64,000 bases of DNA from an uncultured Candidatus Rokubacteria bacterium. GTDB lineage: Bacteria; Methylomirabilota; Methylomirabilia; Rokubacteriales; DASRDR01. Of this stretch, positions 3,026 to 60,655 are shown piece after piece. The DNA lies in the NCBI GenBank assembly GCA_963749975.1, contig CAVVOZ010000031.1, forward strand, positions 1,270 through 65,269, in the 5' to 3' direction. Under the pieces are notes generated by a model, which ran no database searches, had not been told where the DNA came from, and worked only from the letters and a program-made list of their open reading frames with translations. The first letter of the stretch is position 1. The number at the start of each line of letters is the position of its first letter. The position numbers and the translations under genes were made by a program.

Positions 3026-3679
3026 CTAGCGCTTGGCTGGCTGCTGGGCCGCTGCCGGCCCGGGCGTCGCCGCCGCAGCAGGAATGGGAACCGCCTGGAA
3101 GACCACCGCGACGAGATCGGCGCGCATGGTCCCCGGCGCCAGATCGGTGCCGCGGCCGCCGGGAGGGGCGGCCGGAGCCCCCGCGCGCTGCCGGGCCTGG
3201 ACCTTCACCTCGTTGAGCGTGACGAGGCGCGGCAGCTGCGCGAGCTGATCCGCGAACTTCAGCAGCTCGTGGTAGCCCCCGCCCACCCCGACTTCCATCG
3301 GGATCTCCACGTAGAGCTCCTGCTGGCGGTTTGGCCGGCGCCGCACCTGGCCGACGGTCAAACCGGACTTGCCGGCCAGCGTCTCCACACTCCGGAGCAC
3401 CGCCGCCGATTCGTGCTCGGTCGGCAGCCGGCGAGACAGCTCGCGCAGCTGAACCTCGAGGGCTTCCCGCTCACGCTTGATGCGCCCGAGGTTGGCGACC
3501 ATCTGCTGGGCGTTGCTGACTTCCCTCTGCAGGCCGTCCCGCTCCACCGCGAGCTTTGCGGTCTCGTCGCGCAGGCCCTTCACACCAGCGAAGCCGGCGA
3601 TGCCAGACCAGGCGAAGTAGCCGACACCGAGGATGAGGAGGCAGATCAGGATGATCTGCTGCCGTTCCGCGCGGTCCAT
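3026..3679 (-). CDS. pilO: Pilus assembly protein PilO
   Basis: 217-aa ORF with an N-terminal TM helix plus coiled coil and periplasmic domain. Position between pilN and pilP. Confidence 0.75.
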   Translation of the reverse strand: MDRAERQQIILICLLILGVGYFAWSGIAGFAGVKGLRDETAKLAVERDGLQREVSNAQQMVANLGRIKREREALEVQLRELSRRLPTEHESAAVLRSVETLAGKSGLTVGQVRRRPNRQQELYVEIPMEVGVGGGYHELLKFADQLAQLPRLVTLNEVKVQARQRAGAPAAPPGGRGTDLAPGTMRADLVAVVFQAVPIPAAAATPGPAAAQQPAKR

Positions 3680-3699: not shown

Positions 3700-4438
3700 T
3701 CAGAGCTTGACCGTCGCCGTGACCTCGAAGGACACGACGCGCGTCTGATCGACCCGTTCAGCCTCGGTCACCACGAAGTCCACGTCCGCGAAGATGCCAA
3801 CCTTGCGCAGGTTGTCCATGAAGTCGGCGATCTGGAAGTTGTTGAACGCCCCGCCCTTGATGACCACGGAGTACCCCGCGAGCTGCGAGACCTCTCTCGT
3901 GGCCGGCCTGGCCCCGCTGCGGCGGGCGCGCCGCCTGACCCTCGACCTCCGTGCGCTTGGCCTCGAGCCGCCCCAGCGTCTCGCTCATCGTGGCGGCGGT
4001 CTGCTCCTCGACACGGACCTTGATTTCCTGGGGCTTCATGTCGACCCCGTAGAGCCAGACGCCCTGCGGCACCGCCCGGAGCACACCGTTGAGCATCGCC
4101 AGCGGCACGCCCTGGCTCTTGGCGACCTTGCCGATCACCTCGATCCGCCGCTGGATCTCGACCTTCGCCTTCTCGGCCTGGTCGAGCTCGTTGAGCTGAC
4201 CCTTCAGCTGCTCGTTCTGGGCCTTGAGGCTCGTGATCTGGGTCTGGTAGTCGCGCTTCGTGGACCACGCGCGATACCCGAGCAGGCTCATGGCCAGCAG
4301 CATCAGCACGAAGACGCCGCCCAGGATCTTGGTGAGGAGCCCGGCGCTGACCCCGGCGCGGGGGGAGGTTGGAGCCGCCGCGCGCCCGGTTCGGGCCGCG
4401 CGCGCTTCCCGTGGGAGCAGGTTGATTTTGATCGCCAC
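3700..4438 (-). CDS. pilN: Pilus assembly protein PilN. The C-terminal segment is recovered in the +1 frame (…GGAFNNFQIADFMDNLRKVGIFADVDFVVTEAERVDQTRVVSFEVTATVKL*).
   Basis: INLLP N-terminal motif of PilN. Own retranslation shows a frame change near 3940 and the true stop at ~3700. Confidence 0.75.
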
Positions 4439-4450
4439 GGTATCCCGTCC

Positions 4451-5506
4451 TTACTTCCGGTCGTCCGGATAGCGCATCGCCAGCCCGGTCGCGACGCTCG
4501 CGAGCGGCGCCAGCTTCTCGACCATGCCCGCATCGGTCCCGGTGCCCACGTCGACCCGCTTGAAGGGGTTCGCCCGGATCACTTCGATCCCCCACTGCCC
4601 GGCCAGGAACTCCTGGAGACCCGGGATCAGGGCGCAGCCGCCCGAGAGGAAGATCCGCTGGATACGCTCGTGCTCGGCAGTGGTGCCGAAGTAGTCGAGC
4701 GTTCGCTGGATCTCCTGGCCGATCTCCTGGGAGACCAGGTCCAGGACCGGCTCCACCTCGACCCAGCTCACCGACCCCTGCTCGCCCCGCACGATGGCCT
4801 CGGCCTCGGCCGGGGCCAGGTCGAACCGCTGGGCGATCGTCGAGGCGTACTGCCGGCCCCCGACGAAGATGTCGCGGGCGTACACGTTCACCCCGCCCTG
4901 CAGGATGTTCGTGTTCGTGGTCTCGTGCCCGATGTTCACGAGCGCCACGACCTCGTTGCCCTGGCCAGGCTCGTTGTGCTGGTACTGCGTCTCGAGCGCG
5001 AAGACGTCGACGTCCACCACCACGACGTTGAGCCCGCACGCCTCCACGACGTCCGCGTAGCTCTGGACCTTGCCCTTCTTCACCGCCACCAGCATGACTT
5101 CCAGCTGAGGTCCGTCCTGCCGCAGGATCTGGAAATCGATGTTGACGTCGTCGATGTCGAAGGGGATGTGCTGCTCGGCCTCCCAGCGGATGGACTCGCC
5201 GAGCTCGCTCTCCGACATCTTGGGGAGATTGACGCGCTTGGCGATGACGGAGCCTCCCGACACACCGATGACGGCCTCGGTCGCCTGGACCCCGCCCTGC
5301 ACGAGGGCCTGCCGGATCGCCTGCTGCACCGCGTCCGGCTGCTTCACCTCGCCGCCCTGAATCGCGCCGGCGGGCACGTGGGCGATGCCGAATCCGCTCA
5401 GCTCGTAGGCCGACCCCTTCGGCTTGAGCTCGACCACCTTGACCGCGCTCGTGCCGATGTCCAGGCCGACTACTTCGGGTCGCTTCTTCTTCTTCCAGAA
5501 CGTCAT
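4451..5506 (-). CDS. pilM: Pilus assembly ATPase-fold protein PilM (actin-like)
   Basis: 351-aa ORF; the N-terminal motif VVGLDIGTSAVKVVELKPKG is typical of PilM/FtsA-like proteins. First gene of the pilMNOPQ order. Confidence 0.9.
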   Translation of the reverse strand: MTFWKKKKRPEVVGLDIGTSAVKVVELKPKGSAYELSGFGIAHVPAGAIQGGEVKQPDAVQQAIRQALVQGGVQATEAVIGVSGGSVIAKRVNLPKMSESELGESIRWEAEQHIPFDIDDVNIDFQILRQDGPQLEVMLVAVKKGKVQSYADVVEACGLNVVVVDVDVFALETQYQHNEPGQGNEVVALVNIGHETTNTNILQGGVNVYARDIFVGGRQYASTIAQRFDLAPAEAEAIVRGEQGSVSWVEVEPVLDLVSQEIGQEIQRTLDYFGTTAEHERIQRIFLSGGCALIPGLQEFLAGQWGIEVIRANPFKRVDVGTGTDAGMVEKLAPLASVATGLAMRYPDDRK

Positions 5507-5690: not shown

Positions 5691-8463
5691 CTAGCCGCGT
5701 TTGCGGCCGGCCAGAAGCCCGCGGACGGTCGTGAGGAACTCCTGAATGTCGAACGGCTTGGAGATCACGAGATCGACGCCCAGCTCGCGCGCGCGGCGTG
5801 TCGCGCGCGCCCGATCGAACCCGGAGAGGATCACGACTGGCGTGGTCGCGTCGACTTGCTTCACTGCCTCGACGACCTCCCATCCGGGAACGTCCGGCAT
5901 GCCGAGATCGGTGATGACGAGATCGTACGCGCCCTCGCGTTCACGCACCTTGGCGATGCCCTCGAGGCCCGAGCCCGCGAGCGTGACGGAGTAGGCGGCG
6001 CCGCGCAGCATGTCGCCGACGGCCGTGCGGACGGTCTCGTCATCGTCGACCAGCAGCACCTGCGGGCGATCCGTCTCGGCGACGGCGAGCGGAGGGGGCG
6101 CGCCCTCGCCAGCAGTCGGCAGGCGCAGCGTGACCGTCGTGCCACGCCCTTCCTCGCTGTCGATCGTGGAATCGCCTCCGTGGCGGGCCATGACTCCGTA
6201 GACCATCGAGAGCCCGAGGCCCAGGCCGGTCTCACCCTTGGTCGAGAAGAACGGCTCGAACGCCCGCCGGCGGACCGCCTCGGACATGCCGACGCCCGTG
6301 TCCGACACCGACACCGTGCCACGACCGGCGTCGAGCCCGGTGCGAATCGTGATCGTGCCGCCCCGCGGCATGGCGTCCACGGCGTTGTGGAGCAACTGCA
6401 CGGTGGCTTCGAGGAGCTCCGACTCGGCCCCGATGAGCTGCGCGTGCGGCCCGAAGTGGGTGATCAGCTCGATTGGCGCGCCACGCGCCGTGGGCTCGTC
6501 CCGCCACTTCGCCCGCGTCTGCTCGACCGCACGCTGGACGATGTCGTTCAGGTCGACGGGGCCGAACGGCTCGGCCGGCCGGGAGCGGCTGAACTCCTGG
6601 ATCCGCGAGAGGGCGTCGATCCCGGTGCGAGTGGCGGACTCGATCTCGTGCAGGCCCGAGGCGATCTCCCGGGACTTTTCCCGCGAGGCTCGCTTCACCA
6701 GGAGCTGGGTGCGGCCGAGAATGCCCGCCAGCACGTTGTTGAAGACGTGCCCTACCCCGCCGGCCATGTTGAGGAGGGCCTGCATCTTCTCGTCGACGGG
6801 GATCCGGCCGGCCCGCGCGGTCAGCTGGTCCTGCGTCGTCTCCAGCTCCTCGAGCCGCCGGCGCAGCCGCCGAAACTCCTCCTCGTCGATCCGAGTGGTG
6901 TCACGGACGACCTCGCGCACGACCTCGCGGTCGACGGGCACCTCTCGGATGATCTCCACCGGGACGTCCCGGACGATCTCCTTCACCACTTCGACCGGGA
7001 CCTCCCGGACGACCTCGCGGTCGACCGGCACTTCCCGCACGACCTCCACGGGCACTTCGCGGATGACCTCGCGCTCGACCGGGACTTCTCGCACGACCTC
7101 CTTCAGAAACTCCACGGGAACCTGAACCGGGACCTCCCGGATGACCTCCACCTCGCGGATCACCTCGACCGGGACTTCCCGCACCACCTCGCGCACGACC
7201 TCGCGATCGACCGGCACCTCCCGCACGATCTCCACCGGCACTTCCCGGATGATCTCCCGGTCGACCGGCACTTCCCGCACGACCTCCTTCACGACCTCCG
7301 ACCGGCACCTCCCGGACGACCTCCCGGTCGACCGGCACCTCCCGCACGACCTCCTTCAGGAACTCCACGGGAACCTGAACCGGGACCTCCCGGACGACCT
7401 CCACCTCGCGGATCACCTCGACCGGGACTTCCCGCACCACCTCGCGCACGACCTCGCGGTCGACGGGCACCTCCCGGACGATCTCCTTCACGACCTCCAC
7501 CGGCACTTCCCGGACGACCTCCCGGTCGACCGGCACCTCCCGGATGACCTCCACCTCGCGGACGACCTCGACGGGCACCTCTCGCACGACTTCCTTCACG
7601 ACCTCGACCGGAGAGGCCGCGGCGGCGGGCTGGGCGGCCCGCAGGGAGGAGGACACCACGCCCGCCGCGAGCTGGGAGGCGAGGAGCTCCGCCGGCGTCG
7701 CGGCGCTGTCACCCGATCGACCCACCAGCAGGAGGCCCACCAGATCATCGCCCGCGCGTAGCGGAAGAACCCCGGCGGTCCCGACACCCTTGCTCGGCCG
7801 CGTCAGCCAGAGGGGCTCGCCCCGCCCGAGAACCTGCCGGACCTTGTCGGCCGGCAGTCGGGACAGCGCCATGCTCTCCGGGGCGGCGACGATCCACGAG
7901 AGGGCACCCCCCGTGCCCGGCATGGCGAGCGCCGCCCATTCCATCCCCGTGGCGCGGGCAACTCCCGGGAGCATCGCCTTGGCCGCGTCACCCCGGGCGC
8001 CCCCGTGTGGCGGAGCGGCGTCCTCGAGTGCCGCGGTCAGGGGCTCGAGCAGGTGGATGCCGTCGTGGGAGACCACGGGTCCGGCCGCCGCAGCGCCTCC
8101 GGCCTCCCCCCCACCCGGCACGACCTCGGCCTTCTTGAGGAGATCCATGAGGAGGCGAGCGCCGCGAACGCTCATCACCTCGACGCCCGGGGGCTTGATC
8201 GACAGGAGACGCTCGTACTGGCGCTCGTCGCCGCTGACCTCGAGGACCAGGTTGGCCTCGGTCTTGAACACCTCCATGGCGTTCTTGACGACCTGAAGGT
8301 GGAGGCTCTTCGCGAGCTTGCCCCCCTCGGAGCGGTCACTCGCGTCGGCGACGATGGCGATCGTGACTCCCGGGACGGCCCGGAGCGCCTCGATCGCCTG
8401 GACGAGGTGGATCCCCGTCCCGACCAGCCCTACCTTGTACGTGCTGCTCGAGGGCGGTGGCAT
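5691..8463 (-). CDS. Hybrid sensor histidine kinase / response regulator of ~920 aa. N-terminal Rossmann-like and GAF-like region, then a ~250-aa array of (V/I)REVPV-type octapeptide repeats, a coiled coil, HisKA, HATPase_c and a C-terminal REC.
   Basis: ORFs 6901..8463 and 5691..7292 overlap in the repeat array. A single extra G near 7301 (relative to the homologous repeat copy at ~7495) separates the frames. H-box GHVFNNVLAGILG, G-boxes and a REC with DDD...D...K. Confidence 0.8.
6900..7650. repeat. Coding tandem-repeat array encoding REVPV(D/E)xEVV octapeptides. Higher-order ~240-bp units at ~7100-7290 and ~7340-7530 are nearly identical.
   Basis: Direct comparison of the plus-strand sequence at 7101-7290 and 7342-7530, and the protein repeats in the ORF track. 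Confidence 0.85.
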
Positions 8464-8499
8464 GGCGCCATTATACGCAGGGGAGCGTAGACTCCGAGA

Positions 8500-10160
8500 T
8501 GTTGTGAAACATTCGGCATCTGCCGCGCCAGAGGCCTCGAAGGCCTACCGACAGGAGGTGCCGCCCCCCGTGTCGGCGGCGTAGTCCACGCAAACGAGGA
8601 ACGACTTCCGGACGAGGACCACCGTGTTGCCCGACCCCTACCGGGAAGCCCGGCGGCGGGGCGGCGTTGCCGTACGTGGGGTTGTAGCCGTAGCTCGAGG
8701 CAGTGGACTGGGTCTGGATCTCGAAGGCCACGACGCCCCCGTCCATGATGATGGGGTTGAACTCCACGTGGCCGCCCGAGTAGACGAGCCCGTGGATCTC
8801 CGTCCCGGAGGCGCTCCCCATGTCCGCGCAAACCCCCTGTGGGTTGAGGGGATTGGCGGTCGGCTGCGGCGCGAGGTTCACGGCGTCAACCGGATCGAAC
8901 AAGAGGTAAGCCAACGGATACCCGTATAGTGGCGGCTGTCGTCCAGATTCTCGAGCCGTTCTTGTGCCAGATGTCCCGGCTGCCCGCCACACCCCGACGA
9001 GCCGTTCCCTTCCACCACGACCACTCCATGGAGGTCCTGGCTCTGTATGGTGAAATCACAGCAACCGCTGCCCGTCCAGGATGGCCGCGTCCCGCGCATG
9101 ACATAGACCACGACGCCAGTTCCGGCCGGGGTGTAGTCCACGTTCCAGGTCAGACTGGATCCCCGGATCACCATTCCCGTGTTCGTGCCACAGCCACTGA
9201 GATTCGACGCATAGAGAGTTGGAGTGGTGGTCCGGCGCGAGTCAGCGTCCTTCACGCAAGCCTTCCGCACGAGGAGCCGCCGCAAATGGCGTTGGAGAAC
9301 ACCGCGGGATCGCACGGCGTGCTGAGGGCGCAATCGAAGTATCCCTGGTATGCTTGCCCGCCCCCGTCACAGTTCATCTTGCTCCGGTCGCCCGCGACGA
9401 CCAGCCGCTTGCCGCCCGGATAGGGGTAGCCGTAGTTCTGACCAGGGGGCAGTTGCCGACCGTTTCACCGTGCAGGGTCACGTCGATTGCAGAGCAGCCC
9501 AGCTGGGGCCGGGGCAGCTCGTCGTACGCAGCGGGGCCGCCAGGGTACTCGTTCGGGTCCGCCGGCACGATCGTGGGGTTTCCGTTCCGGTTCGCCGGCT
9601 CGTTGCAGTAGCCGGGCGGATTGTCCTGGCTCGAGTTCGAGCAGACGTGCTTCCAGGGGTTGTCGATCCCGAGAACCGCTCGCACCCGGGCCCGTCCCAG
9701 CCCGTTCGCCGCCGTCCCCCAGGCCGTAAGGACCGCCGTCTCGTTCGTGTCGCGGCCCGCCGACCCCCCGCCGCAGCTCGGGTCCTGGATCGACACGGGC
9801 ACCAGAGGGCTGCAGTCGTTGTCGATGACCGCCGAGTAGTCTCCCGGCCCCCAAGCCGACCCCGTTGAAGAGCAGCTTGGCGAGGCCGGCACCACACCCG
9901 TAGGAGGACGAGTTGCCGGGGTCGGTCCACTTCGTGAACCCGCATCCTTCGTCGGCCGCGGTGCGCACCTCGTCCCGCCCCCGTTCGAGCCCGGCCTCGG
10001 CCAGGGCTTCGGCCTGCGCCTGAAACTTGTAGTTGACTCCGGTCGTCATCTCGATCCTCGACAGGAGGGCGAACGAGAAGCTCAGGATGCCGAGGATGAG
10101 CATCGCGATGACGGCAATGATGAGGACCGATCCGCGCTGGCTGTGCAGGGTTGGTCTCAT
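8500..10160 (-). CDS. PilX-like minor pilin N-terminus (MRPTLHSQRGSVLIIAVIAMLILGILS) followed by a large Cys-rich beta-rich domain (PilX/PilY1-like tip-associated protein?). The reading frame is broken several times.
   Basis: PilX_N-type prepilin-like N-terminus at 10160. Plausible protein-like segments appear in ORFs 9374..9895, 8878..9333 and 8471..8992, in different frames. Confidence 0.45.
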
Positions 10161-10186
10161 GGTTCGCTTTCGTGCTGCTTCCTCGG

Positions 10187-11019
10187 CTACGAGCGGTTTC
10201 GGAGTGTGACTTCGGTGATAAGCGTGCGGCTCACCGTCTGGCCCGCGATCTGCTGCTGCGCCTGGACCGAGATGCGGACCCGCCCGATGTTGTCCGCTTG
10301 GGACTGGCTCGACAGCGGCAGCGCGAAGGCGATGTTGCATGGGTTGGGCTGGCCGGCGCAGGGGCCGAAGTTCGCCCGAGGGTAGTAGGTAAACGTCAGG
10401 CCATTGATGTCCACCGCCACCATCGCCACAGGTCCCGTCCCGTCGTCCCGTGTGATGCACTGGGGCACCCCCGGCGGGCAGTTCAGAGTCGAGAGCGCGT
10501 AGAGCACGTCCTCCTCGCCGCGGTCGGCCGCCGATGCCGGTGAGGTGATGGCATTGCCCAGCCCGGCGATCCGCCCGTTGTGGTTGCGGTCCGAGCGGAT
10601 GCGCAGGGTGGTCGCCGTCGCCTGCCCGAAGGGGATCGCATAGAGCCCGGTGCACCCGGGACCGCCGAGCGCCGTTGCCGGTCTGCCAGGTCGGAGTGCC
10701 CGTCCCGGCGAGCCTGGCGGTGCAGTTCGCCACCTTGACCCCATCACAGTCCGACGGTCGAGGACGTCGCATAGTCGAACGCGCAGACGGTGGCGTCCCG
10801 GCCTCCCGATCGGATCTCGCGGACCATGAAGTCCATGGCGGCGCGCACGTTCTGCTGCACCTCGGCCGACTCCGACCCGATGAAGTAGGCTTCCTGCGCC
10901 TTGCCCCAGGTGCCAACGACACCGACCATCACCAGGGCGAAGAGCGCGAGGGTGACGACCAGCTCGGTCAGGCTGAGTCCACGCCCGTCGCGCAGCAAGG
11001 ACGTCGCCTTGCGGGACAT
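10187..11019 (-). CDS. PilW-like minor pilin/pseudopilin (leader MSRKATSLLRDGRG|LSLTELVVTLALFALV); C-terminal part lies in ORF 10187..10747
   Basis: Prepilin N-terminus with G|LxxxE. The second ORF overlaps the first stop by GTGATGA, and its own N-terminus lacks a TM helix, so I read them as one gene with a frame change near 10700. Confidence 0.5.
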
Positions 11020-11030
11020 GTCCGGCCCCT

Positions 11031-11451
11031 TCAATTCGCCCGGATGGTCACGACCGTGGTCCTGTAGATCGGGTTCGGAACCGACCCGCTGAACTCCACG
11101 ACCGCAGTGATCGTCGTCGTGGTGCTCGTCGGCGTGCCCGGCTGGACGGCCACGCAGCGACCGAACCCGGCGAACGCCGTCACCGGGCGCAAAGTGCCGC
11201 TGCAGTTGGTGGGCAGGGTCCCCGACGACCCGTCGAAGCTCAGGCTCGGGATGCTTCCATAGTCCGCCGCCTTGGCGCGCTCGATCGCCTCCTGAGCCAG
11301 CAGGGTCGCCGTGGTCTGGAATCCACTTGCGACCACGCCGTACAAGGCATAGGGGATCGACGCCGCAAGGGCGAGAAGGGCGACGGCCATGAGGACCATC
11401 GCCACCATCAGCTCGACCATGGTGACGCCGCGCTGATCCGGTTCGTTGCAT
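11031..11451 (-). CDS. Minor pilin (PilV/FimU-like). The mature N-terminus is VTMVELMVAMVLMAVALLAL; the leader ATG with a GGAGG RBS is in a neighbouring frame.
   Basis: ORF 11031..11420 plus own translation of the upstream leader (MQRTG.. / ..DQRG|VTMVE). Confidence 0.6.
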
Positions 11452-11465
11452 CGGGGCCTCCGTTC

Positions 11466-11925
11466 TCAACAGCCCGCCACCCGGACGCCTCCGTAGAGCG
11501 TCACGGTGATGGTATTCAGGCAGGACGCGGGAGAGGTGTCGACGGTGAAGGTCGTGGCGGACACGCCGCCCGGAAGGATCCGATTCCCGATCGGGATCGA
11601 AGGCAAGGGTCGGCGCTGTCGACACGACCGTTCCGCTCTCGGACAAGTTCTGCCAGTCGTAGCCGGAGACGACCGCCCCGGTGCACGCCGGGGTCGTAGT
11701 CCGCCTGGCGAATCCGATACTGGCCCAGCCCGAACTCGATGCAGTGGTTCGAGCCCTGGGTGATGGCGAGCTGTCGAGCCATTCGGATCGCGCCCGCAAC
11801 GTCTCTCGGCAGCGCCCTTCACCATCAGCACCTCGCGCACGTTGGAGAGCCAGGGGTATACCGCGAAGCCAAGGATCGCAATGATAGCCAGAACGACCAT
11901 CAGCTCCACGGCGGTCAGCCCGCGT
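11466..11925 (-). CDS. FimT/GspH-like minor pilin (leader …AQRG|LTAVELMVVLAIIAILG; downstream segment IEFGLGQYRIRQADYDPGV in another frame)
   Basis: Prepilin cleavage motif; segments in ORFs 11466..11909 and 11516..11782; AGGAGG upstream. Confidence 0.5.
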
Positions 11926-12043
11926 TGAGCTCCGCTGCCGAGGCCACGCCCTCCTATCGAACACCGTCAAGCCGACCTCTCGATTGCCACACGCGACATG
12001 GTCGTGCTCATCGTCTCTCCCCGTTGGCTCGAAGTGCTCGGCG

Positions 12044-12877
12044 TCAGCCGGCCGCGACCTCGTCGCTCTTGCGCGGGTAGGCGGTCACCCGGTTCCGACC
12101 GGCTCGCTTCGACTCGTACAGCGCCTCGTCGGCCGCCCACACGATCTCGTCCGGGTTCCGGCCGTCCTGGGGAAACGCCGCCAGCCCGATGCTCACCGTG
12201 ATCGGATTCAGGCTGTCGGGCGCCATCACGCTCGACTCCACCCGCCGGCGGAACCGCTCGGCGAACACCAGCCCGTCGGGCTTGCCCGTCTCGGGCAGGA
12301 TGAACGCGAACTCCTCGCCGCCAACCCGGCAGGGCACGTCGCCCTCGCGCGAAGCCGAGCGCATGAGCGCGCCGAGGGCGCGCAGCACCGCGTCTCCCTT
12401 CGGGTGGCCGAACTCGTCGTTGAACTTCTTGAACCCGTCGATGTCGATCATCAGCAGGCTGAACGCGTGCCCGAACCGGCTGGACCGGCTGATCTCTTCC
12501 CGGACCCGCAAGTCGAAGCTCCGCCGGTTGCCGACCTCCGTGAGCTCGTCCGTGTGCGACATCTCCCGGAGGCGGAAGTTGGCCAGCCGGAGCTCCTCCA
12601 CGATCCCGTCGGCCTTCGCCCCGCTCGCCCTCAGCCGATCCAGCTCGTCGTCCAGGTTCCGCTGCATGTGACCCAGGACGTCGCTGTAGATCATGTAGAA
12701 GCCTGCCAGCTCGAGGAACGCCAGGAACGCGAGGAGCAAGAAGAAGACGGGCGCACCCTTCGGGTAGAGGGGAGCCGTCACCGTGCTGGGAAGCAGGACC
12801 GGCAATCCCAGGTAGACCAGGAACAGCAGCGGAAGCAGCCCCGCCATGAGGAAGGCGAGCAGGAACTTCTTCCGGAC
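12044..12877 (-). CDS. Membrane-anchored diguanylate cyclase (GGDEF; GGEEF active-site motif)
   Basis: ORF 12044..13018. Two N-terminal TM helices, then RSFD...GGEEF...KxxGR; the true start is probably internal (~12877 or 12847). Confidence 0.85.
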   Translation of the reverse strand, partial: VRKKFLLAFLMAGLLPLLFLVYLGLPVLLPSTVTAPLYPKGAPVFFLLLAFLAFLELAGFYMIYSDVLGHMQRNLDDELDRLRASGAKADGIVEELRLANFRLREMSHTDELTEVGNRRSFDLRVREEISRSSRFGHAFSLLMIDIDGFKKFNDEFGHPKGDAVLRALGALMRSASREGDVPCRVGGEEFAFILPETGKPDGLVFAERFRRRVESSVMAPDSLNPITVSIGLAAFPQDGRNPDEIVWAADEALYESKRAGRNRVTAYPRKSDEVAAG

Positions 12878-12923
12878 ACCTCGCCCCGGCAGGAAGGAGC
12901 CGCGTCGGGCGGTCTTGATCGGC

Positions 12924-13955
12924 TCAGCCAAGGTACCACTCCATGATGGGGCGGCCCCAAACGGCCGCCACGATCCCTCCGACGGCCAAGAAGGGCCCGA
13001 AGGGCAGGTACTCGCCAAACCGCCGGCGACCCGAGACGAGCAGGGCCGCGGCCACCACGCCCCCGAGCATGATCCCCACGAACGCCGCGACCATCCCGCC
13101 GCCCGCGCCGAGCGCGGCCCCGATGAGCCCCGCCAGCTTGATGTCCCCTCCGCCCAGGCCCGTGCGCCCGAGCGCGGCGTGGCTCACCCAGGCCACGAGA
13201 AAGAAGAGGCCCCCCGTGACGATGCAGCCGGCCACCGGGAGGTCGACCTGGTTCAGGACGCGAAAGGTGAGCGGCCAGCCCGGCGCCGTCAACGCCGCGA
13301 GGTTCACGACCGCGAGCTGCCGTCCGATCAGCGCGCCCCACGTCGCCGCCCAGTAGACGTCGAGCCGCCGTCGCTCGGCGGGATCCACCTCGTCCTCCCC
13401 CTCGACGACGGGCGGGGGCGGCGCCCCGCGGGACGCCGCGCCCCGGGCGCGCGCCATCGAGATCGCGGCGAAGATCGCCGCGCCAATCACCGCCCCGACA
13501 CTTCCCCGGCCGAGCCCCTCGGGGGCGAGGATGCAGGCGGCGACCACGCCGGGCAGCGTGATCCGGTCCGGGATCCGCCGCGTCTCGAGGTCGGTGAACG
13601 CGGTCGCCACCATCGCCAGGCAGAGGAGGAATGCGCGCACCGCGTCCCAGGTCGGCCCGAGCTGCCACAGGACCAGGACCCCGAGCACGACGGCGAGCGC
13701 CTCGACCAGGGGGTACCGCCAGGAGATGGCCACGCCGCACGCCCGGCAACGCCCGCCCAGGACGAGGTAGGACACGAGGGGGATGTTGTCCACCGGTCGG
13801 ATGGGATTCTGGCAGTTCGGGCAGTGCGATGCGGGCAGGACGATGCTCTCCCCGCGCGGCAGCCGGGAGATGCAGACGTTGAGGAAGCTGCCGAGGAGCG
13901 CGGCCAGGATCACCCCGGCGGGCCAGGCCACGACGGGCGGGAGCGCGGTGGTCAT
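12924..13955 (-). CDS. pilD: Prepilin peptidase PilD (A24 family)
   Basis: N-terminal CPNCQ...C..C zinc motif, GGGDIKL motif and multiple TM helices. Start assigned at MTTALPP. Confidence 0.9.
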   Translation of the reverse strand: MTTALPPVVAWPAGVILAALLGSFLNVCISRLPRGESIVLPASHCPNCQNPIRPVDNIPLVSYLVLGGRCRACGVAISWRYPLVEALAVVLGVLVLWQLGPTWDAVRAFLLCLAMVATAFTDLETRRIPDRITLPGVVAACILAPEGLGRGSVGAVIGAAIFAAISMARARGAASRGAPPPPVVEGEDEVDPAERRRLDVYWAATWGALIGRQLAVVNLAALTAPGWPLTFRVLNQVDLPVAGCIVTGGLFFLVAWVSHAALGRTGLGGGDIKLAGLIGAALGAGGGMVAAFVGIMLGGVVAAALLVSGRRRFGEYLPFGPFLAVGGIVAAVWGRPIMEWYLG

Positions 13956-14270
13956 GCCCCGCCCTCGGCATGGGCTGCGGCGTACCGCTGGACGGCGCGC
14001 GCCAGCACCTGGGGCCACCGGCTCCGCTCGCGGAGCGCCGCGAAGCCCTCCGGAGCGAGCAGCCGCTCGACGTCGCCGCGCGTCACCGTCACCTCGCCAT
14101 CCGATCCCGCCAGAACCAGGCCGTCGAGCGCCTGGAAGCGCTCGAACACGCGGATGGCAGTCGCCACGGCCAGCGTGCCCTGCTCGGCCGGCAGGGGGCC
14201 CGGCGCGGTCACCCGGAGGGTCGAGCCCGCGAGGCTGACGGCGTCGACCCAGGCCTTCACGCAGGCACCT
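13952..14270 (-). CDS. Small hypothetical protein (~105 aa)
   Basis: C-terminal part of ORF 13952..14614; a GTG start overlaps the HD-GYP stop. No family recognised; could be a GC-driven artefact. Confidence 0.25.
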
Positions 14271-15417
14271 GCTCGGGGACTCGATCCCGCATCATCCGCA
14301 GCGTCCGGTCCAGCACCTTCACCAGCCGCGGATCGAAGGTGCGGCCCGCTTCGTCGCGCACGAACGTCCGCACCTGATCCAGCGGGATCGCCTTCTTGTA
14401 GGCGCGGCGCGACGTCATCGCGTCGAAGACGTCGGCGAGGCACGCGAGGCGGCTCACCGGGTGCTGCCGCCAGCCCTCCCGGACGAACGGGTAGCCCTTG
14501 CCGTCGTAGCGCATGTGATGCTCGAAGGCCACGATCAACGGGAGCCGGTTCGACCCCGGGAGCCGCGCGAGGAGGTCGGCCCCGAGCACGGGATGGCGGC
14601 ACATGATCCGCCACTCCTCCGCATCGAGCAGGCCGGGCTTCCGCAGCACCTCGAGCGGGATCGCGATCTTCCCCAGGTCGTGGAGCATCCCGGCCATCCC
14701 GAACTCCCGCAGGAGCTCGTGTGGAAGACCAAGCGCGAGACCGATGCCCATGGAGATCACCGCGACGTTGACGGAATGATACAGCGTGTACTCATCGTAC
14801 GACTTGATGCTGGCCAGTCTCAACACGAGCCCAGGAGCCTGCAGCATCTGTTCCAACATCGTGGAGGTGTACACGCGGAGCGTTCCGACGTGCTCGAGGC
14901 TGAGGGCCCGGCGGTCTCGGATCGTCGATTCGACGTCGCGCAGCACCTCGATCGACCCGTAATAGGCCCGCCGGGCGACGCCCTCGCCGCTCTGCCGGTC
15001 AGGTTGGCTCGGCGGAGCCAGCTGGAGATGGGTGAGCCGACGGCGGGCGGTCCACTCGCCGATCGACGCGCCCACCCCCTCGGTCAGCGCCTCGAGGAGG
15101 GCGTCGATCTCTCGATCCTCGAGACCCGCCGTGAACGCGATGGCGCCGAGACCGCGCTCGCGCTGGCAGGTCTCCAGGAAGCGCCGGTACAGGAGACTCT
15201 CGCGCGGCAGGATGCGGTCGTTGGCCACGAGGAGATCGCCCATGAAGCGATAGGTCAGCCGTCCCTGCCCGGCCAGATAGGCGGTCAGCGCCTCGAAGAG
15301 CGTCTGCTTGGCCCGGTGCGTCTGAGGATGGGTCGGCAGGTAGAGTCCGGCGGCACGCAACATGCCGTGAAGATAGGTGAAGATGAGCTGGGGATCGGGT
15401 CGCAGGGCGTCACTCAT
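14257..15417 (-). CDS. HD-GYP domain c-di-GMP phosphodiesterase
   Basis: HDLGK and HHMRYDGKGYP motifs in ORF 14257..15606; start assigned at MSDALRPDP. Confidence 0.85.
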   Translation of the reverse strand: MSDALRPDPQLIFTYLHGMLRAAGLYLPTHPQTHRAKQTLFEALTAYLAGQGRLTYRFMGDLLVANDRILPRESLLYRRFLETCQRERGLGAIAFTAGLEDREIDALLEALTEGVGASIGEWTARRRLTHLQLAPPSQPDRQSGEGVARRAYYGSIEVLRDVESTIRDRRALSLEHVGTLRVYTSTMLEQMLQAPGLVLRLASIKSYDEYTLYHSVNVAVISMGIGLALGLPHELLREFGMAGMLHDLGKIAIPLEVLRKPGLLDAEEWRIMCRHPVLGADLLARLPGSNRLPLIVAFEHHMRYDGKGYPFVREGWRQHPVSRLACLADVFDAMTSRRAYKKAIPLDQVRTFVRDEAGRTFDPRLVKVLDRTLRMMRDRVPEQVPA

Positions 15418-17449
15418 CGGGAGTATCCTGGTCTTCCGTCCGCGCCGCCAGCGCGGCCGCGGCGATCTCACGAAGCCGGCGCTCGGTCCGCTTCCAGGGC
15501 CAGACGCGGCGCCGAGCCAGACCCGCCAGCGCCTCGCAGGAGCCGGCGGTCCCGATCGCCGCCAGCGCCTCGACGGCCTCTCGGCGCAGGGGGACGTCGG
15601 CCACACCCGCCGCCCCGGCTGCGACGTCGCGCAGGACCGGTACGGCCTCGTCCCGCCGGAGCGCTCCGAGGGCGCGGACGGCTTCCAGCCGAACCTCCGG
15701 GTCGACGTCCCCCGACAACGGAAGGATCGGCGGCGCGGCGCGGGTCGGGGCGATCAGGGCCAGCGCCCGCACCGCCTCGATGCGCACCCGGACGTGGGGA
15801 TGGCCGAGAAGCGTCACCACCGGACCGAATGCGGCCTCGTCTCCGATCTTGCCCAGGACGTGGACGAGATTGCGCACCAGGAACCACCGCGGATCCTCGA
15901 GCCACTCCACGAGCGTCGGCACGATGGACGGCCCCACCTTGGCGAGGACCTGGCACATCCTCGCCCGAACCTGGCGGTCGCGCTCCTCGGCCAGGAGCGA
16001 GGTGAACTCCTGGATCGCCTCGCGGGCGACCAGGCCGAGGTACTGGGCGACCAGGGCCAGTTGCCGCTCGTTGCCGCCGTGCTGACGCAGCAGTCCACCC
16101 AGAAGGGCGACGTGCGTGCGCCCCCCCAGGCGCTGCTGGAGGACGGTGAGGTGCTGGACGCGCTCGGGGCTGCGGGCTCCGCCTGCCTGGACGGACTCCT
16201 CGAGGGTCGACAGCACCTGCGTGGCCAGCTCGATCCGCCCCCGGGCGAGGGCTTCGCCCAGAATCTCCTCGAGGGCATCCGCGGCGGAGGTCCCGTGCTC
16301 CTCGCCGTCGACGTGCAGCAGCAGGGCGAGCAGGATCTGGGCGCTGCGCTCGAGCAGGACGTCCGGCTGGCACGATGCCAGGATCTCCTCGCGGAGCTCC
16401 ACGACGAGGGGATCGTCGGCTTCGAGCACGACGCCCTCGTCCCCCAGGAGGCTCGGCGAGTCGTCCGCCTGGACCGCGGACGTGATCGCCTCGACCAGGC
16501 GGCGGCGCTGCACTTCCTCCCATGGAAACTCGAGGAGCTCCGAGCTCAGCGCCAGGAGGGACTCCTGCGGCACGAGGCGCGCCGCCACGTGACGGATCTC
16601 GTCCTCGGTCATCTGGCTGAGGAGGTTGAGGGCGAGGACATCGCGCCCGGCCAGCGGGATGAGGTGGTCGGCGAAGAAGGGCCGGAGGAGCTCTTCGGGG
16701 AGGCCCAGCAGCGCCTCGACCAGCGTCCGGGTCCTCACCTCTCGATCCGGCGCCTGCTCGACCAGACCGTGGATCATCCGCGTCGCCGCGTAGAGGCGGT
16801 CGGGGCCCACGGTGGCCGTGTCCCGGAGCCAGGCGATCAGCGCGGTCCGGTCATAGGTGAGGTCCGCGAACCGGGCCTCGACGAGCCCCACGACCGTCTC
16901 GACGAACAGGTCCACGGCGTCCCGGCCGGTCTGGAGGGCCTGCCGGGTGACCTCGCTCGTGTCGGCCTCGGCCTCCTCGCCATCGCCGGGAGCGCCGATG
17001 CGCACCCGCAAGACTCCGCGGGTGGACAGGAAGCCGCTGGCTCCCCCGAGCTGCCGGAGCTCCCCGCCCGGCATGTTCAGGAGCTCGAGGAAGGCCTGGA
17101 GCTCCCACTCCTCGACGGCGCTATCGATCTCGAGCTCGCGGATCCCGCGGCTCTCCAGGTCGAACCGGAAGGCCTCCAGCGCGGGCTCGACGGTGCGGAT
17201 GTCCGGCCCTGCCCAGACGAAGCGGTCCGGCTCCACGCGAAGGGGGAAGGAGAGCCCCTGCTGGAAGAAGTCCGCCAGCGAGCGGTGGAGCCGCCGGACC
17301 CAGGTCGAGGCGATCTCGCTTCCGGCCGGGTACAGGCTGAGCGACTTCCGGGCCGCCATCAGGGCGCGCAGGAACAGCTCCAGCACGCGCTCGCCGCCGG
17401 CGCTCGCGGCCCCCGCCTGGACGGCGTCGACCGCGCCGCGCGCGGTCAT
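15410..17449 (-). CDS. HEAT/PBS-lyase-repeat protein (~680 aa) with an N-terminal domain of unknown function
   Basis: C-terminal repeats (…VRNLVHVLGKIGDEAAFGPVVTLLGHPHVRVRIEAVRALALIA…). ATGA-type overlaps with both neighbours. Confidence 0.7.
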   Translation of the reverse strand: MTARGAVDAVQAGAASAGGERVLELFLRALMAARKSLSLYPAGSEIASTWVRRLHRSLADFFQQGLSFPLRVEPDRFVWAGPDIRTVEPALEAFRFDLESRGIRELEIDSAVEEWELQAFLELLNMPGGELRQLGGASGFLSTRGVLRVRIGAPGDGEEAEADTSEVTRQALQTGRDAVDLFVETVVGLVEARFADLTYDRTALIAWLRDTATVGPDRLYAATRMIHGLVEQAPDREVRTRTLVEALLGLPEELLRPFFADHLIPLAGRDVLALNLLSQMTEDEIRHVAARLVPQESLLALSSELLEFPWEEVQRRRLVEAITSAVQADDSPSLLGDEGVVLEADDPLVVELREEILASCQPDVLLERSAQILLALLLHVDGEEHGTSAADALEEILGEALARGRIELATQVLSTLEESVQAGGARSPERVQHLTVLQQRLGGRTHVALLGGLLRQHGGNERQLALVAQYLGLVAREAIQEFTSLLAEERDRQVRARMCQVLAKVGPSIVPTLVEWLEDPRWFLVRNLVHVLGKIGDEAAFGPVVTLLGHPHVRVRIEAVRALALIAPTRAAPPILPLSGDVDPEVRLEAVRALGALRRDEAVPVLRDVAAGAAGVADVPLRREAVEALAAIGTAGSCEALAGLARRRVWPWKRTERRLREIAAAALAARTEDQDTPDE

Positions 17450-19104
17450 CGGATCCCCTCCACGCGGGGCGCCCAGGCCAGGACCCCCGCATCCGCGGCG
17501 GCGGGCCGGGCGCCATGGCCGGTGGCCGCCACCCGATCGTCGGAGACGTCCTCGCGGGACAGCCGGGCGAGGCGCGCCAGGAGCGGCCGGTTCGCGTCGG
17601 TCTCGCGGACGAAGACGACGGCCTCGCGCTCGGTGAAGACCAGCCGCCAGCCGCCCTGGGCCAGGAGCGTCTCGCTGAGCGGCGACGAGCGCAGCGCCAG
17701 GATGGTCTGTACCTGCCACTTGTCCAGCACGACCTGCCAGCGCGGGCTGACGTTGACGACGTCCAGGAACTCCTTGAGCACGTCGGGCCCGTACACGTGC
17801 GTGCGGCCGTCCATGAACATCCGGTACTCGGGATACAGTCGCCAGAGCTCGTATCCGCCCCACGCGTAGACGCTGAAGAGCTGATGAGGCAGGCGGTTCT
17901 CCCTGATGAAGGTCATGGTCCGCTCCGGGTACCGGCTCTCCTCGAGGTCGAGGCGAAGCGGGTTCGTGGGCACCCGGGCGATGCCGGCCCAGTGCGCCGA
18001 CACCGCGGTCAGCAGGAGCACGGCGCCGGCCACCACCGGCATGTCGGGCGCCGTCAGCGCGGGCGCGAGCGAGGGCAGGCGTCCCCGCACGGCGTCACGG
18101 ATCCGGGCCCAGTCGACCCGACGCCATTCGGCCATGGCCGCCCCGAGCGCCGCCGCGAGCGGTGGCGCCGCCACGATGGCGAACAGGGGCACGTGCCGCA
18201 CCGACGTGAGCCCGAGGTTCGCGAAGACGAGGACCAGCCCGACGTCGGCGGCGCTGAGCCGACCCCGACCCCACGCGAACGCCGGGAACAGGAGGAGCAG
18301 CATGAGCTCGAGCGGCCGGAAGCCCGCGTGGTGGAAGTTCGGGGGGAACCACTCGATCGTCGAGGTCATGAAGGGCACGCTGCGGACGACCTCGAGCGGG
18401 AACAGGATCGCCCGCACGCCGAACGGGTTCAGCAGGCTGGCGGCGGCCGCCGCCACCCCCAAGCACGCCGTGAGCCCGACCACGCGCCACCCGGCGGGGC
18501 GGCGCTCGGGGTCGACGAGCAGCGGGAGCGCGGTGCCCAGCCCGGCGATCCCGATCACCAGGAACGCCATCACGAAGCCGGCGTGGAGGTTGACCCAGGG
18601 GACCACCAGCGCGGGCACGAGGACCAGCGTGGCGGGGCGGCGCTCCCAGCCCGGGCGCAGGAGCCAGATCAGGATCGCCACGAACAGGTACGTGAAGGTC
18701 TGGGGCCGCGCGTGCCAGAACTCGGCGCCGGTCCACGCCGCCAGAAGCGTCACCGCCGACGCCAGGAGCGGGTGCACGCCGCGGGCGCGCATCGTCCTCA
18801 GGACCACCCAGAACGTGGCCACCACGGTCGCGGTCTTGAGGCCGATCAGCGCGAGCCGCCCCCAGCGCTCCCAGAGGAGCGTGAACAGCACCTGCGTGGC
18901 CCACATGTGGTTGATCCACGGCCGGCCCTCGGCCGTGTAGGAGAAGGGATCCGTCGCCGGCACCGAGCGCGTCTCGAGGATGCGCTGACCGGAGGCCAGA
19001 TACCACCAGAAGTCGAAGACCGTCAGCGAGGACAGGGCGATCGTCGCCACGGCCAGGAGAGTGACGACGAGGAGCGCGCCGCGGGCGGCCCGCCCGGCGC
19101 TCAT
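17446..19104 (-). CDS. Polytopic membrane protein (~550 aa), putative GT-C-fold glycosyltransferase; paralog of the next gene
   Basis: At least 10 predicted TM helices. Conserved N-terminal block FDFWWYL…DPFSYTA.G.PW.NH.W shared with 19101..20564. Confidence 0.7.
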   Translation of the reverse strand: MSAGRAARGALLVVTLLAVATIALSSLTVFDFWWYLASGQRILETRSVPATDPFSYTAEGRPWINHMWATQVLFTLLWERWGRLALIGLKTATVVATFWVVLRTMRARGVHPLLASAVTLLAAWTGAEFWHARPQTFTYLFVAILIWLLRPGWERRPATLVLVPALVVPWVNLHAGFVMAFLVIGIAGLGTALPLLVDPERRPAGWRVVGLTACLGVAAAAASLLNPFGVRAILFPLEVVRSVPFMTSTIEWFPPNFHHAGFRPLELMLLLLFPAFAWGRGRLSAADVGLVLVFANLGLTSVRHVPLFAIVAAPPLAAALGAAMAEWRRVDWARIRDAVRGRLPSLAPALTAPDMPVVAGAVLLLTAVSAHWAGIARVPTNPLRLDLEESRYPERTMTFIRENRLPHQLFSVYAWGGYELWRLYPEYRMFMDGRTHVYGPDVLKEFLDVVNVSPRWQVVLDKWQVQTILALRSSPLSETLLAQGGWRLVFTEREAVVFVRETDANRPLLARLARLSREDVSDDRVAATGHGARPAAADAGVLAWAPRVEGIR

Positions 19105-59720: not shown

Positions 59721-59838
59721 GGAGGTTCCGCGCGAGGATGACGAGACCGCGCCGCTTGAGATAGCGCACGGCCGCGGCTTCCCCCGCCTGGCCGACGGAC
59801 CGTGTCGTGGCGCGGGGCGGATCGCGCTGCCACCGCAT
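59434..59838 (-). CDS. yraN: YraN-family (UPF0102) endonuclease, full length
   Basis: ORF 59434..59847; AAVRYLKRRGLVILARNLRSRLGEIDLLARDG…. Confidence 0.8.
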   Translation of the reverse strand: MRWQRDPPRATTRSVGQAGEAAAVRYLKRRGLVILARNLRSRLGEIDLLARDGATLVFIEVKSRRGLSGDPPEAAVDGRKRARLVRLALGYLAARRLGEQSCRFDVVGVSLDEAGRVTGVRHLKHAFDLDGWTS

Positions 59839-59954
59839 GCCGGTCACCGTGCAAGGACCCGACCAGGCGGCAAGCCCGCCGGATGTCGAGCCGGCACTCG
59901 CGGGCGCTCATCGCGGGCGGCTGCCCGCGGATGCGCGTCGTGTCCGGGCGGTCA

Positions 59955-60655
59955 GCGCCGGCTCGCGCCCTCCAGGATCCGCACCATCTCGGCGTAGCCG
60001 CGCGCCCGGGCGTGGGCGAGCGGCGTGACGCCCTGGCGGTCGGCGAGATCGATGGCGGCCCGCGCCTCGACGAGGAGGCGCGCGACGGCCACGTGGCGCG
60101 GCCCGCCGTCTCCGAGGATCACCGCCTCGAGGAGGGCCGTCCAGCCGAGGTTGTTGACGTGGTCGAGCGGGGCGCCGGCCGTCGACGAGGACCCGCACCA
60201 CCTCCACGTGGCCGAGATGCGCCGCCGCGATGAGGGCCGTGCCGTCGTAGGGGCTCGTGACGGTGCGCGGGCTCGCGCCGAGCGCGAGGGCAAGCTCGCA
60301 GCGTCGCCACGTCGTCACGCACCGCCGCGATCGTGACGACGTCGTAGCGCTGCGCGTCGAGGGCATCGGGGTCCGCGCCGCCAGCCACCAGGGCCCGCAT
60401 CGCCTCGGCCTGCGCGGCGAACGCGGCGACGTGAAGCGGCGTGCGTCCGTGGCCGTCCCGCGCGCCAGGATCCGCGCCGGTCGCGAGGAGCCGGCGGATC
60501 TCGATCGCGTCGCCGCGGGCCGCCGCCCCGTGGAGCCCCGTGTACGCGCGCATCTCGTCCGGGCCGGGCGGCACCTGAGGGAAGCCGGCGCGAGGCGCGA
60601 GCAGCGCCACGAGGCCGGCCAGGAGCAGCCCGACGAGACGGCTCACGGCCCGGAC
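59955..60655 (-). CDS. Secreted ankyrin-repeat protein; frame changes near 60180 and 60300
   Basis: Signal peptide VSRLVGLLLAGLVALLAP; ANK repeats spread over ORFs 60119..60994, 59908..60366 and 59952..60293. Confidence 0.6.

Follow-up and report, generated by a model that had tools for sequence, protein, structure and literature searches.

A predicted hybrid histidine kinase in the type IVa pilus locus of Rokubacteriales carries an articulin/alveolin-like repeat array with strict two-residue parity

A long, valine-rich repeat in the middle of a bacterial sensor kinase gene raises the question of whether the repeat is a real and selected part of one protein and what kind of structure it could form. 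Such a repeat lies in the 64,000-nucleotide stretch analyzed here (the window), which is part of contig CAVVOZ010000031.1 from an uncultured Candidatus Rokubacteria bacterium of soil (assembly GCA_963749975.1). The element under study is at 5691–8463 on the minus strand, where the list of open reading frames (ORFs) gives two overlapping ORFs, 6901..8463 (520 amino acids) and 5691..7292 (533 amino acids). VREVPV-type repeats form the end of the first ORF and the start of the second. Whether this is one gene or two comes before any question about the repeat.

Removal of one base at 7298–7300 fuses the two ORFs into a continuous protein of 923 amino acids in the repaired translation. An earlier sequence-only reading of the window had already described one hybrid histidine kinase gene split by a single-nucleotide frameshift, and the orthologs bear this out, being single ORFs of 879–955 amino acids; the full-length intact orthologs P0001, P0003, P0004, and P0005 are 78–85% identical at 100% coverage. 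On the minus strand, the site reads CCGGTCGGAGGTCGTG (CCGGTCGGAGGTCGTGAAGG), while the sister copies within the repeat and the orthologs read CCGGT(C/G)GAGGTCGTG (CCGGT(C/G)GAGGTCGTGAAGG). The window sequence is GT[CG]GAG, as though the GTC and GTG variants had both been retained. In 12 of the 15 orthologous loci, an uninterrupted frame connects the N-terminal motifs to the C-terminal ones; among these loci is L007, an Illumina/MEGAHIT contig from a metagenome-assembled genome (MAG) that is 95.4% identical to the window. Two independent genes were rejected because the orthologs carry both halves in one ORF and because the GTG at 7292, the start of the second ORF, has a poor context, with a spacer of only 2 nt after GGAGG; programmed frameshifting was rejected because the orthologs are in frame. 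We regard it as reasonably likely, jointly with the rest of the explanation given below, that 5691–8463 encodes just one protein, a hybrid histidine kinase that is soluble and cytoplasmic.

The protein begins with a Rossmann-like N-domain, followed by a GAF fold, the 236-residue REVPV array, a coiled coil leading into the dimerization and histidine-phosphotransfer (DHp) region, an ATPase domain, and a receiver (REC; Table 1). Structures were predicted with AlphaFold2 (AF2) for the intact ortholog P0001 (84% identical, with a 107-sequence alignment) and, in a separate model, for residues 1–272 of the window protein, with a predicted local distance difference test (pLDDT) score of 83. In the P0001 model, the N-domain has a (beta-alpha)5 fold at residues 9–113 (pLDDT ~80), residues 130–270 have a GAF fold (pLDDT ~90), and the coiled coil, DHp, ATPase, and receiver regions are all confident. 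The N-domain contains the motif GLVGTG, then 20 amino acids, then D40, along with an invariant GDERQYERLL..KPP..EVMS. Its sequence has no match in Pfam, NCBIfam, or PDB, no relatives were detected beyond this kinase family, and its Foldseek matches are weak (the REC–GAF kinase 6oap and the NAD-binding 1nvm_F and 7z3s). The GAF region scores below the Pfam gathering thresholds (GAF_3 at 17.6–18.8 bits versus 27, GAF at 13.7–14.3 versus 22.4), and this domain is optional across the wider kinase family.

The DHp region forms a helical hairpin (562–631) in the P0001 model, and the histidine of its GGVGHVFNNVL motif is invariant; it has no Pfam HisKA match and gives partial matches to CckA and EspC. 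The ATPase motifs HNAVDAMP, DTGVGM, FEPFFSTK, and GLGLGL are present and invariant among orthologs. The same is true of the receiver residues, i.e., DDD at 807–809, the predicted acceptor Asp852 (the D of ITDLGMPD), a conserved Ser, and Lys902 (the K of KPF), with D813, D858, and K908 in P0001 numbering. Hydropathy gives no membrane segment in the window kinase. The hybrid kinases CckA and EspC share the H-box (G/A)GVxH-x-FNNxL and the order of DHp, catalytic ATPase, and REC domains, and they are the best partial matches in NCBIfam. However, these matches are far below the family cutoffs (e.g., 134 bits versus 1000), and the window kinase differs in lacking PAS or transmembrane (TM) sensor modules, in its unique N-domain, and in the nonhelical 236-residue insert before the DHp region.

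The repeat array is real and far beyond chance, as the sequence-only reading maintained, and its description could be refined in several respects. Tandem Repeats Finder (TRF) detects nested periods of 12, 18, 24, 30, 66, and 253 nt over 6904–7569, with a top score of 837. The 236 residues include 19 R(E/D)VPV cores and 21 VPV modules; rather than some 30 fixed octapeptide copies, there are 19–21 R(E/D)VPV-anchored units with lengths of 8, 10, 12, 14, or 16 residues, all of them even. The composition is extreme, with 39% V, 23% E, 15% R, 9% P, and 5% I, 2.5% K, only two residues of S and T together, no A or G at all, and a net charge of −24. V and I together make up 44% and charged residues another 44%, with the charges well mixed and commonly arranged as dyads or triads (RE 24 times, DRE 7 times, KE 6 times). 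On the plus strand, C predominates (C 45%, G 24%, T 14%, C+T 59.5%), which replaces the earlier description of this strand as strongly CT-rich. No Pfam or NCBIfam family covers the array, and only noise matches were returned (SBE2_C, HU-CCDC81). As a side effect of its coding, the array mRNA holds 19 GGAGG Shine–Dalgarno-like pentamers (26.8/kb versus 2.5/kb in the window), an excess that arises because of the CGG-GAG-GTx codons for R-E-V; these pentamers could lead to ribosome pausing or to spurious internal start predictions.

The most regular feature of the array is a two-residue register that is unbroken across its entire length. All 62 acidic residues and all the prolines fall on one parity, here called A (A/B counts of 54/0 for E, 8/0 for D, and 21/0 for P), and the 40 basic residues are without exception on parity B (0/34 for R and 0/6 for K). 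Valine is found mostly on the parity of the basic residues (23/70). The same rule holds in the orthologs P0001, P0004, P0009, P0012, P0014, and P0023, in unrelated bacterial array proteins, and in the dinoflagellate alveolin-like protein P0111. Among 121 unrelated arrays from a search of representative sequences, 83 have a parity purity of at least 90% for both acids and bases, and the median purity is 1.0.

The register is also kept as the array changes in length. Two conserved PVQVPVE landmarks were compared in nine genomes (the window plus L001, L006–L010, L015, and L017), and their spacings of 42, 66, 66, 80, 82, 84, 84, 88, and 96 residues are even in all nine. In the assembled sequences, changes in array length between strains are thus shown to be even in residues throughout. 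An acid/base parity that is preserved through the gain and loss of units provides a simple, testable structural signature.

On a larger scale, the array contains a higher-order duplication, the two copies of which are given in Table 1. The sequence-only reading had recognized near-identical units of ~240 bp at 7101–7290 and 7342–7530; the higher-order repeat stands, while the register and period do not, given that the units as aligned there are 78% identical and the true period is 253 nt, i.e., 252 plus the extra base. Within the duplication, 7126–7203 and 7379–7456 are 99% identical. The two-landmark structure is conserved in the nine genomes, and the two-copy duplication is found in all the close relatives. 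Identity between the 84-residue copies within a genome is 93–94% in the window and L007 and 64–75% in L001, L006, L008, L009, and L017, which suggests lineage-specific, occasional homogenization of the copies by gene conversion.

The repeat had initially been described as an unknown domain, but its motif and composition place it with a recognizable group. Articulins are built of VPV motifs 12 residues long, in which the charges alternate and keep register with V and P, and recombinant articulin p60 has ~30% beta-sheet and forms filaments (PMC2120578). The alveolin core is EKIVEVP (PMC3402405). Epiplastins have acid-base-dyad domains that are V/I-rich, E-rich, and nearly devoid of G, A, S, and T, with V+I at ~33 ± 7%, charged residues at ~35 ± 6%, a net neutral to negative charge, and K in excess of R; articulins are operationally defined by more than three VPV modules (PMC6212826). 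The 21 VPV modules of the array lie within just such a dyad domain. Like these proteins, the array is V/I- and E-rich, contains P, has almost no A, G, S, or T, and shows V/I-flanked dyads. Its octamer EVVREVPV equals the alveolin EKIVEVP(V) at five of eight positions, with the parity classes alike at all of them, and as in alveolins no helix is predicted and the AF2 monomer is unstructured. Compared with epiplastins, the composition departs in the same direction and further, with both V+I and charged residues above the epiplastin means, while R far exceeds K, the opposite preference, and the dyads are base-first (RE). The setting is also different, in that the array is part of a cytoplasmic signaling enzyme of a bacterium rather than of a protein of the protist membrane skeleton built of a head, a medial part, and a tail. 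On motif and composition, the repeat is of the articulin/alveolin/epiplastin VPV/acid-base-dyad type, a low-complexity class in which homology and convergence are indistinguishable. The class is a recognizable one that is structurally unsolved; its occurrence in a sensor kinase, where it is conserved and keeps strict parity, is what is new here. Pfam IMCp has no match to the array at E ≤ 10, a result that is uninformative since the dinoflagellate alveolin-like controls P0111, P0096, and P0120 are also unmatched.

Similar arrays are widespread. When the array by itself was run with phmmer against the whole library, 1.84 billion representatives yielded 247 clusters at E ≤ 1e-3. These include DUF2760, CarboxypepD_reg, PadR regulator, two-TM membrane, fungal Mcp5_PH, and dinoflagellate proteins, in which the array joins other modules. 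Articulin-like proteins were noted before in Caulobacter, and such cases outside the epiplast have been termed epiplastin-like (PMC6212826). Bacterial EV(I/V)(K/R)EVPV array proteins, those of Caulobacter included, have the same type of repeat and commonly follow the parity rule; on the other hand, no histidine kinase outside this family was found among the hits examined, and the Caulobacter proteins are described with VYV modules, which the array lacks. Pfam MgtE_N (PF03448) matches the EV(I/V)(K/R)EVPV arrays of P0121, P0123, P0124, P0126, and P0127 (42.4 bits in P0121 versus a gathering score of 25.9) and is also among the precomputed domains of P0012, P0016, P0019, P0021, and P0022. Matches of MgtE_N on such arrays are almost certainly a low-complexity artifact and a source of misannotation.

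Selection on the array points to the protein level. Across eight orthologs, the ratio of nonsynonymous to synonymous substitution (dN/dS) is 0.08–0.19 for the array, compared with 0.05–0.12 for the kinase core and 0.12–0.55 for the GAF domain. By this measure, the array is shown to be under purifying selection as strong as that on the folded domains. The array cores differ synonymously from one another, with third-position identity of only 0.54. From these comparisons, the array appears to be old and selected as protein.

The kinase also has a consistent genomic home. Its position between the minor pilin genes and pilMNOPQ, noted from the start, was confirmed, and the window from 1 to 31.6 kb is one complete type IVa pilus (T4aP) supercluster on the minus strand, with the pilBTCSRA block ~16 kb upstream of the kinase. 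The gene order HEAT / HD-GYP / pilD / GGDEF / minor pilins / kinase / pilMNOPQ / aroB-like recurs in L001–L005, and all 12 orthologous genome loci are from Rokubacteria/Methylomirabilota MAGs. As judged from this gene order, the kinase is a conserved, fixed resident of the T4aP supercluster of Rokubacteriales. Because canonical PilS and PilR are also present, the repeat kinase is a second pilus-linked kinase, distinct from PilS. A histidine kinase gene embedded in a pilus cluster is familiar from PilS/PilR and PilS2/PilR2 of Pseudomonas and Myxococcus xanthus. The M. xanthus pilS2 gene is presumably between pilD and pilM, just upstream of pilM. The pilR2S2 genes of this species lie inside its single T4aP cluster (PMC6060248). 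Unlike PilS, the repeat kinase is of the hybrid type, carrying a receiver itself, and it has no 6TM_PilS match, no TM segment, and no adjacent NtrC-type regulator. A GGDEF diguanylate cyclase and an HD-GYP phosphodiesterase flank pilD in all the related loci, which suggests cyclic di-GMP (c-di-GMP) control of this pilus system. These two enzymes were considered as phosphorylation partners of the kinase and rejected, as no receiver domain was detected in them. A role for the kinase in pilus regulation has several points against it: no cognate response regulator or HPt protein adjoins the kinase, the neighboring GGDEF and HD-GYP proteins have no detected receiver, and the putative link to pilus regulation comes only from conserved gene order.

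Two alternatives concern whether the window can be trusted at 7298–7300 and in the array. The extra base is most likely a consensus or assembly error in a noisy, probably long-read metagenome assembly, a possibility for which the sequence-only reading rightly urged caution. A frameshift scan (codon-usage Viterbi with a stop-codon distance test, followed by Pfam, in place of a plain GC3 plot of the frames, which gave too much noise) found ~25 frameshift-like switches window-wide, clustered at 1–10.7 kb and 42.8–60.3 kb. With Pfam, PALP is split across frames at ~46236 (profile 5–123 / 136–293), a nitroreductase at ~42852 (profile 6–73 / 117–167), and the PilQ architecture at ~1380 (STN/Secretin_N / Secretin); at the GNAT break at ~43396, one frame holds only a C-terminal Acetyltransf_1 fragment, and the other half has no Pfam match. 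Searches with ortholog proteins (tblastn) likewise show that the reading frame shifts within pilN (~3900), pilQ (~1380), and the genes for minor pilins. Compared with L005 (ENA contig_31339), which is 95% identical, the window has 54 indel events in 15.4 kb, of which 44 are of a single base, mostly outside homopolymers, as is typical of consensus noise. Most of the relatives are MFD MAGs, which are from Nanopore sequencing (PMC12313526). The window assembly is indel-noisy in patches, and ORF-level readings there need care. Other large assemblies have the kinase gene called as short N-terminal fragments, 96% identical to the window, namely P0263 (154 amino acids, on a 96-kb ENA contig) and P0264 (142 amino acids, on a 942-kb ENA contig); the breaks there are at other positions, a pattern more in keeping with assembly noise than with a switch at one fixed site.

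Were the frameshift real, the kinase would be a pseudogene, or the locus would encode an N-terminal sensor with half the array (and a Gly/Arg-rich out-of-frame tail) and a separate C-terminal kinase from the GTG at 7292, through locus decay or as an on/off switch. The extra base is, after all, present in the given sequence, a call that rests on assembly, so a genuine mutation at this site is possible. The assemblies of L011 and L016 are also frame-broken inside the kinase gene. The scan found no candidates within 11–34 kb, which weighs against a uniform error process and, with pilN, pilQ, and the minor pilins also broken, could be read as decay of the pilus locus. However, unrelated, nonrepetitive metabolic genes at 42–60 kb are hit as well, so the breaks are not specific to the pilus. 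They are shared by neither L005 nor L007, L005 has different breaks of its own (in the kinase gene, too), and pilM is 100% identical to its L005 counterpart. The close spacing of the GTG at 7292 to GGAGG is also unfavorable. The sequence-only reading had raised real phase variation at the repeat, but the units are of 24–48 nt and always multiples of 6, so that slippage by units cannot switch the frame; with comparable breaks in many unrelated genes as well, phase variation is not supported. On these grounds, a real frameshift is improbable. An even smaller chance, close to negligible, is given to the array or its size being an artifact of spurious expansion or collapse of a short repeat. Copy number does vary between close relatives exactly at the frameshift junction, where L005 has an additional 29 nt (a DREVVREVPV unit lacking one base) and L001 an additional 66 nt (22 residues); short-read assemblers are able to collapse such repeats, and long-read consensus is noisy. 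Nevertheless, arrays of 17–23 units are found in dozens of independent assemblies (MEGAHIT, SPAdes, and Flye), the two-landmark structure recurs in nine genomes, and the units differ synonymously. Any uncertainty is limited to the exact unit count in the window, within one or two units.

With an error at 7298–7300 as the preferred explanation and the array accepted as real, its conformation has to be weighed. From the strict parity and by analogy with alveolins, the array would be extended or beta-like. This agrees with the sequence-only reading in favoring an extended form over a coiled coil, for which AF2 gives no helix; a coiled coil or single alpha-helix was rejected on account of 39% Val and regular Pro. 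The beta-solenoid that was also proposed fell away since AF2 has no confident fold for the P0001 array (residues 272–530), with pLDDT 31–40 and neither helix nor strand by DSSP. This lack of predicted structure, with the beta-type idea drawn only from periodicity and analogy, speaks against a defined conformation, as does the existence of family members with short arrays of ~15–45 residues (P0024, P0027, P0029, P0033, and P0035), which makes a long array dispensable for the kinase to function; the repeat dN/dS may also be biased by the aligner choosing the best-matching units. The array could instead be an intrinsically disordered, entropic polyampholyte linker with no conformation or self-association, in which only length and charge matter. 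The unstructured AF2 model, the charged fraction of 44% with well-mixed charges, and ortholog array lengths of about 15 to 258 residues would all fit, yet a structureless coil does not explain perfect parity over 236 residues and indels that are only even, nor dN/dS as low as in folded domains, and a 44% content of beta-branched V and I is atypical. In AF2, a single alveolin domain looks just as disordered, although AF-Multimer folds such domains into twisted beta-ribbons (PMC12465100) and they form filaments in cells. We regard the disordered linker as somewhat unlikely. By this analogy and by its periodicity, the array is probably a spacer under constraint, extended and with two faces, and the two copies in a kinase dimer would probably pair. 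A stronger form, in which it would be an unannotated bacterial counterpart (homologous or convergent) of the alveolin/articulin assembly module, unstructured alone and either zipping into a beta-ribbon stalk in the dimer (at most ~75 nm fully extended) or polymerizing, is a more doubtful proposition still.

Other long spacers help to frame how a two-faced array of this kind could work. ER/K single alpha-helices and the PEVK region of titin are also long, highly charged, and repetitive, with length tuned by unit number. ER/K helices lack Val and Pro and depend on i/i+4 charge pairing, and PEVK lacks strict two-residue parity. For the array, 39% Val and a Pro every 8–16 residues argue against a helix. 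With these prolines, the array would be unable to serve as a continuous helical signaling linker, leaving the role of a tether or stalk. An extended beta-type chain would present an acidic/Pro face and a Val/Arg face and could serve as a length-tunable tether between a sensing or anchoring module and the kinase core. Because histidine kinases function obligatorily as dimers, two arrays would be held side by side, and they would probably zip with each other, or with further copies, in the manner suggested for alveolins. A small ligand may bind to the N-domain and GAF domain; alternatively, these domains may anchor the kinase at the pilus machine. The GxxGxG...D pattern of the N-domain would suggest a dinucleotide-type ligand, and cyclic nucleotides are typical ligands of GAF domains. 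The kinase would autophosphorylate, pass the phosphate to its own receiver, and modulate pilus assembly or expression alongside the neighboring c-di-GMP enzymes.

Sensor kinases are thought to relay signals to the DHp region through continuous helices. A nonhelical, proline-punctuated array of 236 residues at the joint between sensor and DHp implies coupling by tethering, assembly, or localization. If the array does form a beta-ribbon or polymer, kinase molecules would be gathered or held in place at the base of the pilus machine on its cytoplasmic side, and the signal from sensor to kinase would travel by tethering or assembly instead of a helical linker. The ~250 other bacterial protein clusters with this module would, in that case, share a general structural element that has gone unrecognized until now. 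The parity rule links the bacterial arrays to the poorly understood alveolin and articulin repeats of protists, malaria parasites included, and a small, soluble bacterial model could help to solve the structure of these repeats.

Table 1. Coordinates of the kinase gene, its predicted domains and repeats, the surrounding pilus genes, and the frameshift-like switches in the window
Feature	Position	Strand	Evidence or remark
Whole hybrid histidine kinase gene	5691..8463	minus	923 aa after removal of one inserted base; ORFs, repaired translation, intact orthologs
N-terminal (beta-alpha)5 Rossmann-like domain, aa 9–114	8122..8439	minus	AF2 pLDDT 81–92; invariant columns
GAF-fold domain, aa 135–271	7651..8061	minus	
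REVPV repeat array, aa 286–521	6900..7608	minus	TRF, composition, parity, dN/dS, AF2 of P0001
Higher-order repeat, promoter-proximal copy	7301..7486	minus	92% identical to 7048–7233
Higher-order repeat, promoter-distal copy (84-aa block around landmark PVQVPVEFLKEVV)	7048..7233	minus	92% identical to 7301–7486
Frameshift site	7298..7300	minus	Extra base, CCGGT(C/G)GAGG -> CCGGTCGGAGG; also unit-copy-number junction among relatives
Charged coiled-coil segment (EEEFRRLRRRLEELETTQDQL) into DHp	6822..6884	minus	P0001 AF2 helix 533–557; columns nearly invariant
Codon of predicted phospho-accepting His572, H-box GGVGHVFNNVL (CckA-like)	6747..6749	minus	Invariant; H578 in P0001
HATPase_c, aa 680–783, N/G1/F/G2 boxes	6114..6425	minus	Pfam PF02518, 80.3 bits (cutoff 26.4)
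Receiver (REC), aa 802–913	5724..6059	minus	Pfam PF00072 Response_reg, 80.6 bits
pilB	29853–31556	minus	
pilT	28741–29832	minus	
pilC	27492–28721	minus	
PilS	25802–27475	minus	6TM_PilS+PAS+HisKA+HATPase
PilR	24385–25797	minus	REC+sigma54+HTH_8
Pilin	within 23798–24388	minus	
Glycosyl-/methyltransferases and two ~500-aa paralogs	between pilin and HEAT protein	minus	
HEAT protein	~15416–17449	minus	
HD-GYP	14260–15417	minus	
pilD	~12927–13955	minus	
GGDEF	12056–12916	minus	
Minor-pilin-like genes (N_methyl/GspH-type)	~8471–11970	minus	Directly upstream of kinase; several frameshifts
pilM	4451–5506	minus	Directly downstream of kinase; Pfam PilM_2, 252.6 bits; tblastn
pilN (frame-broken)	3703–4438	minus	Pfam PilN
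pilO	3026–3679	minus	Pfam PilO
pilP	between pilO and pilQ	minus	
pilQ (frame-broken)	~776–2300	minus	Pfam STN/Secretin_N/Secretin
Frameshift-like switches	~735, ~1380, ~3900, 8627–10754 (several), ~42852, ~43396, ~44017, ~46236, ~55681, ~57604, ~57968, ~59795–60296		

Some further observations were made on the window and its relatives. One locus, L014 (DASZOP010000170.1), is labeled Gemmatimonadota and has 85% DNA identity to the Rokubacteria pilus locus over 6.7 kb; the label is probably a binning misassignment. Within the pilus supercluster, 17497–19104 and 19125–20528 on the minus strand encode tandem paralogs of ~470–540 amino acids, which are 34% identical by tblastn, are conserved in L001, and have no Pfam match. 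Outside it, a second pair of tandem paralogs is found on the plus strand at 53413–56050 and 56371–59130. These encode large multipass membrane proteins with repeated C-terminal DRDVATGWSTG...VDLG modules and are frameshifted at ~55681, ~57604, and ~57968.

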